Virus record (IMG/VR): IMGVR_UViG_3300031774_000010
Location: 1 to 60,111 of that record
Reading direction: 5' to 3' (one strand)
DNA length: 60,111 bases
From: a virus
Lineage: Duplodnaviria > Caudoviricetes
Part shown: positions 56,201 through 60,111 of the stretch, one piece after another
Layout of the letters: each line of letters opens with the position of its first letter
Numbering within the stretch: position 1 is the first letter of the stretch
Made by a program: the position numbers and the translations under genes
Notes under the pieces: generated by a model
Told to the model about the DNA's origin: nothing
Databases searched by the model: none
What the model saw: only the letters and a program-made list of their open reading frames with translations

Positions 56201-58033
56201 TTAGTGAGTCTCCATCCAATTTTTACCTTCTTTGGCTTCACCAGTTAACGGACATTTTAAGTCAAAAAATTCTCCTGCTTTTTCAAAAGATTTAATTGCT
56301 AGGTCCTTATACACGGAAACGTGTTGAGGTTTTACTAGTGCTTGGATTTCATCGTGGATGTGAGCGACAAAAGCAAAATGACACCCCCATTTAAGTTTTG
56401 CTAAATGTAAATCTTTGTAGAGAATACAAGTAGCTTTTTTAACTGCAATTGCACCAGTTGATTGTAGTAACTGATTCAATGCACTATGGCGAGATCTTAT
56501 CTGTAAATGTCTACCATCTATTCCAGTTAAGTAACCACGTTCAACTACTCTCTCATCAACTTTATCTTTTAGTTTTTTAATTGCTGGTAAATTTTTATAG
56601 AAAGTATCAATAGTTTCTCTACCTAATTCTTGTTGCTCATGCTCACTTAAAGAGAAGTCTAAAATAGTGCCTAATTTTCTTGCTCCAGCACCATAAAGTA
56701 CTGCATAGATCAAAGTTTTTGCAAGCTCTCTCGTATTTTTACTTATATCTCCTTTACCATCAAATATTCCAAATAATTTTGCATTGTGAGTGTGTATATC
56801 GAAGCCATCTGTACTAACTAATTTAGCGTACTCTCCATCATCGAAGTATGCCAGTTGAGCACCTAATGCACGTAGTTCTAACCCACTAGCATCCGCTCCA
56901 ACTTGCACCCATCCAAAGGGTGCATAGAAGAGAGCACGGCACTCTGCGCCATAAGGTTGACCAACTCGCGGAATTTGGGCCACATTGGGACCCCGGTGTG
57001 AACATCTGCCCGACACACAGGCGTTGGTGATAACTGAACCATGTATTCTTCCATCTTTAAATTTTTGGCTATGTTTTACCCACGCTTCCTTACCCTCAGA
57101 TATTTGACCTAATCTCTTATTTAATAATTGGTATTTAGCTAAGAGAGCAGCTTCTGGGTATTTCTTACCAAGGATTTCCAATACGTCATCATCAAGTTTC
57201 GTATTACCTTTCTCTGTCTTGCTGAATGTGATGTCAGAGTATTTGTCACGTAATCTATCTGCTGTTTGTTTTCTTGAAGCTGGGTTAAATACTGTAACTT
57301 TATCTTTAAGTCTTTTTCCTGTTTTCTCCGAAATTCTTTCCTCTGTAATCGGTGGAAATGTCGCTTGAAGTTCATCATCAATCTCTTGTCTCTTAGTTTT
57401 TAATGTGTTAACTAAAGCGTAAGCTGCTTTTTCATTAAAAGGAAAACCAAAATCCTCTTGTAATGCCATGATACTTGCAAAATTATGCTCTAATTCGTAA
57501 CAAGTAGGGCTTAACTCTTGCGTCTGGAAATATTTATATAGTTCTAGTGATACTAAGGTGTCATTCTCACAGTACTTCTGCATTTCTGGAGTCCACTTGT
57601 CCCATTTATCTGCCCCCGTCTCTACTGGAAAATCAGATTTATTTACATTTAATCTTGCTCCCCATGCTCCTAAAGAATGTTTACCTTTATATTTTGAATC
57701 GATATGCGAAAACTTTTGTTCATCAACAGGCTCCATCTCTGGCCAAAGTACACGACTCATAATTAATGTGTCGCAAAGAATGCATCCTTTTTTCGTTTTA
57801 AAACGTGGATAAACAGTTTTTAATGCTCTTAAATCAAAATTAATTCCATTATGGAAAACAAGTAAGTCTGCCTGACTAATTAAATGTAAGCCATTTGTAA
57901 TAGGTTCATATCCTTCCTGATCTGCACAACTAATAACATCATTAGTATCAATATCTCTAAGCACTAGACTATGAACTCTGTCCAATTCATGGAGCAGACC
58001 GTTCGTTTCACAGTCGAGTACGTATCGGAGCAT
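56201..58033 (-). CDS. polA: DNA polymerase family A, T7-like, with 3'-5' exonuclease
   Basis: ExoI DCET, HNG.NFD, YCEND; motif A DASGLELR; motif B AKTLIYAVLYG; motif C IHDE. Confidence 0.97.
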   Translation of the reverse strand: MLRYVLDCETNGLLHELDRVHSLVLRDIDTNDVISCADQEGYEPITNGLHLISQADLLVFHNGINFDLRALKTVYPRFKTKKGCILCDTLIMSRVLWPEMEPVDEQKFSHIDSKYKGKHSLGAWGARLNVNKSDFPVETGADKWDKWTPEMQKYCENDTLVSLELYKYFQTQELSPTCYELEHNFASIMALQEDFGFPFNEKAAYALVNTLKTKRQEIDDELQATFPPITEERISEKTGKRLKDKVTVFNPASRKQTADRLRDKYSDITFSKTEKGNTKLDDDVLEILGKKYPEAALLAKYQLLNKRLGQISEGKEAWVKHSQKFKDGRIHGSVITNACVSGRCSHRGPNVAQIPRVGQPYGAECRALFYAPFGWVQVGADASGLELRALGAQLAYFDDGEYAKLVSTDGFDIHTHNAKLFGIFDGKGDISKNTRELAKTLIYAVLYGAGARKLGTILDFSLSEHEQQELGRETIDTFYKNLPAIKKLKDKVDERVVERGYLTGIDGRHLQIRSRHSALNQLLQSTGAIAVKKATCILYKDLHLAKLKWGCHFAFVAHIHDEIQALVKPQHVSVYKDLAIKSFEKAGEFFDLKCPLTGEAKEGKNWMETH

Positions 58034-58036
58034 GAT

Positions 58037-58270
58037 CTACTTTTGGTGTTTAAGTAGTTTAGCGATGTTCACTATATCAAGATTACTGGTTAAGTCGTTC
58101 TTTTTAAACCGTTCGTAAAGGTCTTTAATGGATGTTAAATCTCTAAGACAGAGTGCTCTTTCTAGACTATTCGGTTCTTTAATGTCTACAAGTTCGATTG
58201 CGCGTTTTCCTTTTGAAAGGCAGAGCACCTTTAAGGTCTCAGGATCATATAAAACGTAACCAACTTGCAT
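58037..58270 (-). CDS. hypothetical protein
   Basis: 77-aa ORF in operon. Confidence 0.65.
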   Translation of the reverse strand: MQVGYVLYDPETLKVLCLSKGKRAIELVDIKEPNSLERALCLRDLTSIKDLYERFKKNDLTSNLDIVNIAKLLKHQK

Positions 58271-58273
58271 GGC

Positions 58274-58558
58274 TTAATCCTTTATAGATTCATGATTAGG
58301 AATTGCCCTCATCAAAAATATATCTAATGCTACATGGAGTAAAAGTGGAACCATTTTAAAAGCAGGTTCAGGTAATCCTCCAAATAGTGCTGCTAGTTTG
58401 TCACTTAGATCTGTTCTATGTAGATCTTCAAATTCAACAGCCAACATATTTGCTACGTTTAAGAAGAAGTCCATTGGTTCTTCATCTTGATGTTTTAATT
58501 GTTCAACTATTTCCCAAAGTTGTGGGTCTGTTTGAATGAGTTTTAAAAGTTCTTCCAC
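58274..58558 (-). CDS. hypothetical protein
   Basis: 94-aa acidic helical ORF. Confidence 0.65.
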   Translation of the reverse strand: MEELLKLIQTDPQLWEIVEQLKHQDEEPMDFFLNVANMLAVEFEDLHRTDLSDKLAALFGGLPEPAFKMVPLLLHVALDIFLMRAIPNHESIKD

Positions 58559-58559
58559 A

Positions 58560-59183
58560 ATGACTCAACGAGTACGCCGCAAGTTTACAAGCTCTACATT
58601 TTGTGTTGATGGATATATCTGTAAAGTTTTTATAGAACCAGTAGAAAAATATACTTCAAATTTTTATATATGGAGTGCTGGGTTTGCTATTGGTAAATCA
58701 AAAAGGCAAATCAATGACTGGTATAAAAGAAGGAAAAATAAGCGTGCTCGTTCTTTAGAAGGAAAAATTAGTGGTAAAAGAGGAATAAAAATTATAAGAA
58801 AAGGTTTTCAAGAAATTTTAAAAATGAGGTGGTTAATAGAACCAGGTGATGCATTATCTGGAGTGTGTAGATCTGCAAAAACAGAGAAGGAATTTAACGC
58901 TTTTTATAGATGGGCAAAAAAACATCCAGAGATAATAATTAATTATCTTAATAAAGAATTTATTTGGTATCGTCCTCCATTTCCAAATGATCCTGTGAGA
59001 AAACATTTTAAAATTATTCCTCTTACACCTTCTAATAAATTAATTAGTACTACTGGGTCTTCTTATTATGACTGTTTTCTTGTTCGTCCAAAAGTTGAAG
59101 GTAATTCTCTATCCATGGAGCAAATAACTGATCTACTATCCCCGGTTCTAGCCACTGCGCCATTCGAGGAAACGCCCACTTAA
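58560..59183 (+). CDS. basic hypothetical protein
   Basis: ORF 58536..59183; ATG at 58560 avoids head-to-head overlap. Confidence 0.6.
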   Translation: MTQRVRRKFTSSTFCVDGYICKVFIEPVEKYTSNFYIWSAGFAIGKSKRQINDWYKRRKNKRARSLEGKISGKRGIKIIRKGFQEILKMRWLIEPGDALSGVCRSAKTEKEFNAFYRWAKKHPEIIINYLNKEFIWYRPPFPNDPVRKHFKIIPLTPSNKLISTTGSSYYDCFLVRPKVEGNSLSMEQITDLLSPVLATAPFEETPT

Positions 59184-59367
59184 GGGCTTCTTTTGATTCT
59201 TCAGTATCTTGTTCTAATAAATCTATTAATACTGCACCTAACCATTTACATGGCTCTAACTCTGGGTTTAAATATTTAGTCGATGGTAATAACGATTTTG
59301 CGTAATTTCCCTTCAGTGTCTCGTAGTTCGTAGATTTGGAACTCTCCATCACCGATCTCTGTATCAA
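59050..59367 (-). CDS. hypothetical protein, start uncertain
   Basis: ORF track; overlaps both neighbours. Confidence 0.4.
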   Translation of the reverse strand: MIQRSVMESSKSTNYETLKGNYAKSLLPSTKYLNPELEPCKWLGAVLIDLLEQDTEESKEALKWAFPRMAQWLEPGIVDQLFAPWIENYLQLLDEQENSHNKKTQ

Positions 59368-59506
59368 TAGCAGTATAGAGATTGTACTTGGGTAAGTTCA
59401 CTCTTCCGCATTCATTTACATAAAGATGAGTATGATCTAACACAGAGATCACACCAGAATCACTGGCTACCTTACCTATTAATTTTGGCTTAATATTTTT
59501 AGCCAC
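59276..59506 (-). CDS. hypothetical protein
   Basis: IG.V..DSG.I.V.D...GDGEF.IY pattern. Confidence 0.65.
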   Translation of the reverse strand: MAKNIKPKLIGKVASDSGVISVLDHTHLYVNECGRVNLPKYNLYTAIDTEIGDGEFQIYELRDTEGKLRKIVITID

Positions 59507-59537
59507 AAAAAAAAGACAACAACTATTATTATACGCA

Positions 59538-59650
59538 AGGGTCGTAGAAGAACAGTGTCAGACCCTAGAGGAAGGCACAATTTTTACTGTTTCTTGTGTC
59601 TAGCAATTGCGAATCCTACCGAGAAATAGCGGTGGGATTCCTTCCTCTAC
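59538..59650 (+). ncRNA. candidate structured non-coding RNA
   Basis: Four stems plus loop-loop complementarity; G-U wobbles favour the + strand. Confidence 0.55.
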
Positions 59651-59677
59651 AAATCTTAAGGTTTTCTTAACATTTAA

Positions 59678-59721
59678 TGTATCCGCGCAAACTGTATCAA
59701 TAACTACAAAAAGTGTATAGT
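59678..59721 (+). promoter_or_regulatory. NtcA box(es) adjacent to a -10 element
   Basis: TGTA-TCAATAAC-TACA at 59693-59708; weaker GTA-N8-AAC at 59679-59692; TATAGT at 59716. Confidence 0.7.
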
Positions 59722-59747
59722 TAAATTAAGCCATAAAGGAGCACACC

Positions 59748-59891
59748 ATGCCACGTTTAACTTACAGAGGTAATGTTTACCAACCATCAGAAAAGAAATC
59801 TGAAAAACTTAATCGTGTTGTAGGTTTACCTCACACTTATCGTGGAGCTGTGTACCATTACGAACCAGTAGAAAAGGAGAAAGTAGTATGA
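59748..59891 (+). CDS. DUF4278 family small protein (47 aa)
   Basis: Manually read MPRLTYRGNVY...HTYRGAVY; RBS AAGGAG. Confidence 0.85.
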   Translation: MPRLTYRGNVYQPSEKKSEKLNRVVGLPHTYRGAVYHYEPVEKEKVV

Positions 59892-60016
59892 ATCAACTAC
59901 CCAGCATTAGAAAACGCATGACAAAAGAGATGCGTCTTCATGAAGCACAACTAATTGCCGCAGTAGGATCAAATTTTAGGCAATTTAAAAAACCTACTAA
60001 ATTAAAAATCAAATAA
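59888..60016 (+). CDS. small basic helical protein (42 aa)
   Basis: Manually read MNQLPSIRKRMTKEMRLHEAQLIAA; RBS AAGGAG; ATGA overlap. Confidence 0.7.
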   Translation: MNQLPSIRKRMTKEMRLHEAQLIAAVGSNFRQFKKPTKLKIK

Positions 60017-60024
60017 GTTTTTAT

Positions 60025-60047
60025 CCCCGCCCAGTGCGGGGTTTTTT
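60025..60047 (+). terminator. intrinsic terminator
   Basis: CCCCGC-CCAGT-GCGGGG followed by TTTTTT. Confidence 0.9.
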
Positions 60048-60111
60048 ATGCACACCCTTTAATGTACTCTTCAGCCAATGCTTGATTTTGGTGGATTTTT
60101 TTAATGAATTT

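Follow-up and report, generated by a model that had tools for sequence, protein, structure and literature searches.

The interval 59538-59650 (+) of the IMG/VR virus record IMGVR_UViG_3300031774_000010 is a genuine small RNA gene, widely conserved among uncultured cyanophages of the sea. The whole record of 60,111 nt (estimated completeness 70%), termed the window in what follows, was analyzed, and within it the RNA element sits in a 241-nt intergenic gap between an open reading frame (ORF) of 76 amino acids and a DUF4278 gene. The reading favored here, to which we give about even odds (roughly 0.5), is that the product is a stand-alone small RNA, made by the host RNA polymerase, that acts through a rigid fold on a conserved partner. 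Marine cyanophages shape the flow of carbon and nitrogen in the ocean, and to our knowledge only a handful of RNAs are known from them (CfrI, PhotoRC-II, wcaG, manA and glutamine riboswitches). To these would be added an abundant RNA with an exceptionally well-supported structure, a covarying loop-loop pairing, a conserved promoter of its own and one copy per genome, which keeps one position across a large clade of ~80-kb uncultured phages and is also found in lineages marked by tRNA-Leu/talC and by petF.

Conservation and fold of the RNA

The first set of homologues consisted of 35 related viral loci fetched by means of the family-A DNA polymerase (PolA) of the window, and in 14 of these the same intergenic region was found by blastn at ~70-80% identity. 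In this first comparison of 14 loci the stems vary while both loops are constant, with a compensating change of U-A to C-G between the loops. A strict pattern built on the two loops, in which most loop bases were fixed, gave at least 45 stretches in viral contigs and at least 115 in metagenome contigs. In a genome collection it gave four matches, all on contigs of metagenome-assembled genomes (MAGs; Bacteroidetes twice, Planctomycetaceae and Sulfotelmatobacter), and among species-representative genomes no cyanobacterial genome matched. The pattern matches listed amount to 131 distinct sequences (67 at 90% identity), and a relaxed pattern, in which any base was allowed at the five central positions of each loop, added 93 new distinct matches among those listed. 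A covariance model (R1) built from 41 sequences matches the window exactly once, at 59536-59653 (124.7 bits). Over 94 loci it gives 81 matches at E ≤ 0.01, never two per locus, and recovers three members that the pattern missed (L013, L015 and L016); the 13 loci without a match include two variants from soil and several with a weak first hairpin. Four larger records (51-93% complete) likewise hold one copy each (4/4). A single viral contig of 106 kb carries two near-identical copies of the RNA together with petF (L051 and L053), one or two bases apart, which may represent a duplication or an assembly concatemer.

The earlier note, which was made from the letters of this stretch, had proposed that the + strand encodes a structured RNA containing a multi-way junction, and this holds for both the window copy and the family. 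The elements are present at 59538-59650, and the + strand folds in RNAfold with −42.6 kcal/mol (z = −4.07; 0 of 200 shuffled sequences as stable), compared with −36.1 kcal/mol for the − strand (z = −2.22; 5 of 200). The first hairpin, H1 (59538-59566), has a stem formed by 59538/9-59543 (AGGGTC, 59538-59543) with 59561-59566 (GACCCT), as the note had described it from the window, and a 17-nt loop (GUAGAAGAACAGUGUCA, 59544-59560) that is near-invariant across the family. It is followed by the 5′ strand of P1 (UAGAGGA, 59566-59572), which pairs with UCCUCUA at 59643-59649 and closes a three-way junction, the latter strand marking the approximate 3′ end of the conserved RNA. Within the junction, the P2 hairpin (59573-59601) pairs 59573-59580 with 59594-59601 in a stem of 8 bp, capped by a 13-nt loop (UUUUUACUGUUUC, 59581-59593). 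A joining segment, J2/3 (AGCAAUUGC, 59602-59610), has a family consensus of about YRG-NAA-YGA, is unpaired in the consensus structure, and shows conserved A and G columns in the family alignments. It leads into P3 (59611-59640), an 11-bp hairpin also seen in the earlier note (59611-59621 with 59630-59640, loop 59622-59629), which has a conserved wobble motif, YGCC/GGUG, near its top (UG in 64 and GU in 70 of 81 sequences) and is joined to the 3′ strand of P1 by 2 nt (59641-59642). The closing stem of the note, AGAGGAAG/CTTCCTCT around GGCACAA/TTGTGTC, is that of the minimum free energy structure of the single sequence, but its register is not supported in the relatives: the pairing of A59573 and G59574 that it places in P1 is not conserved, and covariation gives instead the P1 of 59566-59572/59643-59649 and a P2 of 8 bp. 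A small GC....GC junction helix in the RNAfold structure of the window is also not conserved in relatives.

This fold is carried by covariation in two alignments. In a plain MAFFT alignment of 65 representatives, RNAalifold recovered H1, P2 and P3 with compensatory changes at 19 of 21 pairs. When H1, P2, P3 and the loop-loop helix are considered together in this alignment, 95.1% of the cells are paired, compared with 72.9 ± 0.6% after shuffling and 44.5-49.0% when the partners are slid; paired cells are as frequent in 0 of 500 shuffles. There are 437 cells with a double change, compared with 124.5 after shuffling. The 81-row R1 alignment gave 95.5% (66.8 ± 0.6% shuffled, 44.7-49.8% with slid partners), 867 double-change cells versus 246 and changes on both sides at 33 of 37 pairs, with covariation in all six helices, P1 included; these figures are biased toward the structure because the R1 alignment was fitted to it, a bias of which the MAFFT result is free. 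By helix, both sides change at all five pairs of H1 (96.1% of cells paired), at all eight pairs of P2 (95.4%, and 96.9% in the MAFFT alignment) and at 9 of 10 pairs of P3 (96.9%), and P1 shows the pair types AU31/CG22/GC13 and GC41/AU30/GU6. When the two loops were blocked in RNAfold, an enclosing P1 formed in 151 of 170 members; in 114, P2 was followed by exactly one hairpin before the 3′ strand of P1, and in 108 P1 and P2 were separated by zero nucleotides. Paired columns contain 425 G-U and 34 A-C combinations (137 and 34 when four conserved wobble pairs are left out). Hence the + strand is the functional strand, as had been argued in the note from the G-U pairs of the window.

The complementarity between the two loops, also noticed at the outset, involves eight nucleotides of the H1 loop (GAACAGTG/GAACAGUG, 59550-59557) and eight of the P2 loop (TACTGTTT/UACUGUUU, 59585-59592), and compensatory changes occur in it across the family. 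Its central pairs are AU46/UA18/GC8/CG6, GC54/AU19/GU5 and CG59/UA19 in the 81-row alignment. Since the first pattern fixed most loop bases, the loops were rescanned with free centers. Among the relaxed-pattern matches listed, the loops are complementary at five of five free positions in 22 of 22 sequences with both flanking stems, and are complementary in 14 of 17 with the H1 stem alone, in 8 of 10 with the P2 stem alone and in 2 of 44 with neither. The 174 members contain 18 different complementary pentamer combinations, and in the three members found by the model the divergent loops still compensate one another (GAGCGAUG with UAUCGCUU; GAAACGC with GCGUUUU). That complementarity goes together with the stems, and occurs in so many combinations, shows that the loop-loop pairing is real; covariation alone does not assign it to one molecule or to two.

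Promoter, genomic contexts and the case for a stand-alone RNA

A TATTAT box upstream of the element, pointed out in the earlier note, lies at 59527-59532 as a −10 box, with a predicted transcription start at about 59538-59540. In 171 family sequences, TAWDAT hexamers ending 3-9 nt before the first paired base of H1 occur 111 times, and at any spacing of 10-47 nt they occur no more than three times each. This fixed spacing would therefore put H1 at the 5′ end of the transcript. What lies downstream varies by lineage. A DUF4278-like ORF follows in 45 members, in the window ~100 nt away and behind its own promoter, and in other lineages the neighbor is petF, a small acidic or Cys-rich protein or an unknown protein. 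In eight members of one lineage (L099, L102, L149, L152, L166, L170, L193 and L202) it is tRNA-Leu and then talC, the predicted start of the tRNA being 45-50 nt past the P2 loop, directly after the RNA. In the type represented by L046 (18 distinct sequences) a conserved ORF is convergent and its stop codon overlaps the end of the RNA. A few members have a terminator after the RNA, and in one subgroup P1 is followed by a U-run.

A functional tie to DUF4278 is not supported, given these different neighbors and the separate promoter of that gene. A GTAN8TAC box precedes the DUF4278-like ORF in 45 of 45 members and is found in 6 of 120 members lacking such an ORF; 31 of 44 boxes are followed by a TANNNT box at a distance of 8 nt. 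In the window a perfect box of this NtcA type (GTATCAATAACTAC, 59694-59707) is followed after 8 nt by a −10 box (TATAGT, 59716-59721), then by AAGGAG (59736-59741) and by the ATG at 59748. Because the neighbors vary, because the RNA occurs in tRNA, convergent and terminator contexts and because DUF4278 has its own promoter, the element is taken to be a stand-alone gene rather than a DUF4278 leader. Eight RNA-seq runs contain small parts of 57500-60111, and contigs from four of these were compared. A 208-nt contig of depth 143 from a marine metatranscriptome (run X6) covers 59744-59951 with one difference and stops short of the RNA; since contigs cannot show transcript ends, it gives a hint of transcription of DUF4278 from its own promoter. 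A single RNA-library contig (depth 3, 91% identical) touches the RNA, bridging 59560-59819, and none of the contigs of the three deeper runs covers the RNA.

If this reading is right, the single-copy gene would encode a small RNA of about 112 nt. A host-type RNA polymerase would start 6-8 nt past the −10 box, as the conserved promoter suggests, so that H1 would be at the very 5′ end. The covariation shows that H1 adjoins P1 without a linker and that P1 closes a three-way junction with P2 and P3. The 8-nt pairing between the H1 and P2 loops would pull P2 back beside P1 and H1. The result would be a closed, rigid body of two stacks, in which P2 plus the pseudoknot (about 16 bp) would lie against H1 plus P1 (about 13 bp). 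This body may expose a recognition surface made up of near-invariant unpaired purines (CG.AGAA), a tract of four to five U residues, the GNAA-like J2/3 joiner and the U.G/G.U motif of P3. The RNA would then act in trans by presenting this conserved surface to a conserved partner from the cell or from the phage, which may be the same as that of the bacterial CyVA-1 RNA, whose signature hairpin resembles H1. The 3′ end would be set differently by lineage, through termination at P1 or downstream of it in some and through RNase P cleavage at the abutting tRNA-Leu in others. Of the four activities that the earlier note had considered (riboswitch, small RNA, ribozyme and oligomerizing RNA), a small RNA fits the contexts best, and computation does not separate the four.

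Several observations weigh against this reading. Unpaired nucleotides as strictly conserved as these are found more typically in RNAs that bind a ligand or act as catalysts than in small RNAs that bind proteins. Part of the loop conservation comes from the collection itself, as the patterns that yielded most of the homologues specify loop bases. In a terminator scan 126 of 146 members had neither a U-run nor a hairpin terminator, and in many members a co-directional ORF begins 10-30 nt past the RNA, as would equally be expected of a 5′ leader. The contig that bridges 59560-59819 is possibly read-through into DUF4278, or else DNA carry-over. In addition, the relationship to CyVA-1 described below rests on a single hairpin, and the window copy itself has no CyVA-1 match at E ≤ 10.

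Some of these points are those expected of a cis-acting 5′ leader, which is an unlikely alternative: an orphan riboswitch, or an element that binds a protein or the polymerase (for example a stabilizer or a put-like antiterminator), would control its own transcription unit. The RNA would lie at the very start of its transcript, in most lineages a co-directional gene (petF, small proteins or DUF4278) follows within 10-100 nt, usually with no terminator between, and the one RNA-library contig joins the RNA to DUF4278. Where a U-run directly follows P1, in one subgroup, transcription could be terminated by the formation of P1 itself, and the near-invariant unpaired nucleotides around the pseudoknot resemble an aptamer. 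Moreover, the orphan motifs manA and wcaG, as presented in the main text of their description, also precede assorted metabolic genes (PMC2864571). Against a leader, there is neither a common class of downstream gene nor a conserved expression platform. tRNA-Leu adjoins the RNA in eight members, and members of the L046 type have an ORF convergent with it; a conserved promoter belonging to DUF4278 itself is present in 45 of 45 cases, the abundant transcript contig of that gene excludes the RNA, and no glutamine-riboswitch family is matched at E ≤ 10. One copy per genome also argues against a general leader. As for the put RNA of HK022, a two-hairpin antitermination element that acts in cis on RNA polymerase so that terminators are read through, a position just after the promoter is compatible with it; a single copy in each genome, and neighbors that include tRNA and convergent genes, are unlike put sites.

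Relationship to CyVA-1 and to other known RNAs

No Rfam 15 family reaches its gathering score anywhere in the 60,111 nt, and in the 14 related loci no family does so over the element, the only matches being tRNAs and Acido-Lenti-1. At E ≤ 10 there are nine matches in 59300-60111, of which the sole one to overlap the element is ncr1575 (18.5 bits versus a gathering score of 60), and this was dismissed as chance. Weak matches to Trp_leader, RyhB, Hrs1 and pistol are explained by an intrinsic terminator at 60025-60047. The statements of the earlier note that the element is neither a tRNA nor a glutamine riboswitch are borne out: ARAGORN finds no tRNA or tmRNA gene in the window, where Rfam also finds no tRNA, and neither glnA RNA nor Downstream-peptide/glutamine-II is among the nine matches. 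No Rfam match to manA, wcaG or PhotoRC-I/II, and no model match to phi29 pRNA, ROOL or GOLLD, was found in the window or the 14 related loci. The novelty claimed in the note stands insofar as no Rfam family is found at threshold and is qualified by repeated sub-threshold matches of H1 to CyVA-1.

CyVA-1 (RF02965), which Weinberg et al. (2017, PMC5737381) mention once in their main text and for which they give a mean length of 78 nt, has been reported in Cyanobacteria from halite (bioRxiv 10.1101/761684). In Rfam it has the type 'Gene; sRNA', a gathering score of 41.4 bits and a model of 77 positions. Its consensus contains a hairpin with an 8-bp stem, C-G closing pairs and a 17-nt loop (GAAGGAGAaCGACGUCA), and H1 is likewise closed by C-G and has a 17-nt loop. 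The H1 loop of the window agrees with that consensus at 12 of 17 positions, with three of the five mismatches at covarying pseudoknot positions, and the loop of a variant group of the family (GAAGAAGAACUACGUCA) is closer still. Run on whole records, the CyVA-1 model gave a single match, on H1, in five of five variant-group records (22.7-29 bits) and matched H1 in two of four other viral records (23.5 and 14 bits); it also matched H1 of locus L218 (19.5 bits, E 0.036) and of the soil variant L136 (13.8 bits). All of these scores are below 41.4 bits, so that the phage RNA is not a member of CyVA-1 by score. Their recurrence on H1 nevertheless leads to its being read as a related variant.

The two RNAs differ in architecture. 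In CyVA-1 an outer stem of 6 bp encloses a 24-nt segment and then the hairpin, whereas in the phage RNA H1 is 5′-terminal and outside P1, and the three-way junction of P1, P2 and P3 is added, giving about 112 nt in all compared with 77 positions. For this reason the phage RNA is not filed as a member but is read as a larger, phage-borne relative of CyVA-1 that shares one module with it. This link gives an orphan bacterial motif a second architecture and many new sequences, and the shared core and its partner or ligand should thereby become experimentally tractable, a length of about 112 nt being suited to probing, crystallography and cryo-EM. A search of 121 Acidobacteriota genomes with the CyVA-1 model gave nothing over the cut-off and one match of 29.5 bits in an apparent coding sequence, and among 103 distinct matches of the exact CyVA-1 loop pattern in viral contigs none is in a hairpin context.

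The same conserved strand pair occurs with another topology in two sequences from soil, L082 (2007-2130) and L136 (21-150), one of them on a contig of a Sulfotelmatobacter (Acidobacteria) MAG, so that the motif is not confined to phages. In these the first strand is in a multiloop within an outer stem that encloses everything. Both lie upstream of infC...pheST, and a ribosomal-protein or IF3 leader was considered and dropped because infC has its own promoter in both and is 1.2 kb away in L136. In 301 Acidobacteriota genomes the relaxed pattern matched in 17 places, of which, judged by eye and unscored, only the known one resembled the motif. In L136 an Acido-Lenti-1 RNA (RF01687; 159-204 (−), 46 bits versus a gathering score of 37) adjoins the soil variant on the opposite strand.

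A more far-reaching proposal, which we consider doubtful, is that the phage family, CyVA-1 and the variants from Acidobacteria are one ancient RNA module, in which a CGAAGRAGAAC..CGUCAG strand would be locked onto a UUUU......UUUC loop, with a small-RNA activity that is as yet undescribed. This could be a new ligand-sensing or catalytic core that has become a free-standing cyanophage gene, or a self-assembling loop-loop multimer, a miniature version of ROOL or GOLLD. Either activity would serve the phage in taking over a conserved host process.

That the loop-loop pairing is between molecules, H1 of one with P2 of another, giving dimers or closed rings, is quite improbable as an explanation in its own right. 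Covariation is blind to the difference, and for ROOL and GOLLD, phage RNAs often near tRNA genes, kissing loops found by covariation have proved to be intermolecular bridges (bioRxiv 10.1101/2024.12.08.627333). The present RNA is similarly phage-borne, single-copy and sometimes beside a tRNA, and phi29 pRNA, ROOL and GOLLD are also stand-alone RNAs encoded by phages with covarying loop-loop pairings. The pRNA of phi29 is about 120 nt long with a three-way junction. Here, however, the helix lengths (~16 versus ~13 bp, and no linker in 108 of 170 members) fit closure within one molecule, the soil variants hold the same strand in a multiloop inside a single outer stem, and no pRNA, ROOL or GOLLD model matches. 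ROOL and GOLLD are also far larger. A pRNA-type motor is not expected either, since the window encodes an ordinary large terminase subunit (phrog_38, E 1.6e-76).

A new self-cleaving or otherwise catalytic RNA is more improbable again. It would suit an RNA whose junction is compact and pseudoknotted, whose unpaired nucleotides are near-invariant and which, tied to no particular gene, is carried by phages and metagenomes, in places beside tRNA or homing-endonuclease genes, and theta ribozymes of phages are reported to occur next to tRNAs (PMC10879173). With a promoter fixed at its 5′ end, however, the RNA has nothing upstream to cut off, and no cleavage-site signature can be named. None of the known self-cleaving ribozymes (hammerhead, twister, twister-sister, pistol, hatchet and HDV-like) has an Rfam match over 59538-59650, the sole ribozyme match being pistol on the − strand at 59993-60041 (14.3 bits, E 7.6).

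Among the RNAs reported from cyanophages, manA, wcaG and PhotoRC-II are structured orphans nearly confined to marine metagenomes and cyanophages that precede assorted auxiliary metabolic genes, according to the main text that describes them (Weinberg et al., 2010, PMC2864571). These are treated as cis-regulatory, unlike the present RNA with its tRNA, convergent-gene and terminator contexts. Glutamine riboswitches have been described before DUF4278/gifB-type genes (Klaehn et al., 2018, PMC6212724), and the RNA of the window is likewise upstream of a DUF4278 gene in a cyanobacterial virus, but here ~100 nt with the gene's own promoter intervene and other lineages lack DUF4278 altogether. From IMG/VR, 8,495 covarying intergenic candidates ('DNAVirus_N') have been compiled (Fremin, Bhatt and Kyrpides, 2023, PMC10690425), and the cases highlighted in the main text are gut RNAs, tRNA-like RNAs and gp20/gp32 leaders, with no such motif named there. 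The family may be listed anonymously among those candidates. No paper that came up in the literature searches describes the motif, the 2010, 2017 and 2023 motif papers being covered by their main texts; Ocean-VI, a motif of the 2010 paper, lacks an Rfam entry.

Neighboring genes and hosts

The window encodes terminase, head and tail proteins, primase, exonuclease, SSB and PolA. In 73 of 173 loci the RNA is 0.85-2.6 kb from PolA, always on the opposite strand and divergent, and this position is kept while the downstream neighbor changes; of 94 loci with 3 kb or more of upstream sequence, 54 show it and the other 40 have no PolA nearby. A replication-linked element, such as a structured primer or an origin transcript at a divergent junction by replication genes, would make sense of this proximity and of the SSB, primase and exonuclease nearby in the window, but is highly improbable given those 40 loci, the lineages in which the RNA is by petF or by tRNA-Leu and talC, and the copy in an acidobacterial chromosome upstream of infC.

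The hosts are very likely cyanobacteria. Among 14 control genomes DUF4278 is matched in Synechococcus elongatus alone, the neighboring TalC (≤62% identity, 484 database relatives) and PetF (≤65%, 234 relatives) have relatives that are almost all from cyanophages, and psbA is present in two loci. Through PolA the cultured relatives are at ≤46% identity, and through a 264-aa neighbor protein none was found. A blastn search of 50,697 cultured-phage records with the window region and two other RNA subtypes gave no match, which is a weak test for an RNA of 120 nt, and R1 found nothing significant in five cultured cyanomyovirus genomes (best 15.2 bits, E 0.33).

On one side of the gap lies the leftward 76-aa ORF (59276-59506), for which, when it was used as a handle, no relatives were found. 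Two ORFs overlap on opposite strands, 58536-59183 (+) and 59050-59367 (−), and tblastn finds relatives of both in loci of the family (of the 215-aa ORF in 86 and of the 105-aa ORF in 54). Three loci of the variant group carry free-standing homing-endonuclease genes just upstream of the RNA (L208, 8050-8619; L224, 10759-11493; L226, 3584-4105), LAGLIDADG_2 twice and HNH_3 once, which would be expected if a highly conserved RNA gene is a homing target.

On the other side, the rightward DUF4278 gene (59748-59891) encodes 47 amino acids (Pfam E 3.8e-6, 27.6 bits versus a cut-off of 25.3). An NtcA-type box this close to the −10 box suggests repression, as with gifA/gifB, rather than class-II activation. 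This implies that DUF4278 is a small phage protein of the glutamine-synthetase-inhibitor type under host nitrogen control. The deep contig at 59744-59951, which spans the DUF4278 ORF and the beginning of the ORF after it, looks like a highly expressed phage operon of small proteins; the depth is 2-5 in other parts. The operon is closed by the intrinsic terminator at 60025-60047 (CCCCGC-CCAGT-GCGGGG + T6), just past a 42-aa ORF (59888-60016). In the whole window the GTAN8TAC motif occurs 25 times, compared with 13.5 ± 3.5 expected (0 of 100 shuffles reach 25), and NtcA-type boxes may thus have a wider use in this phage.

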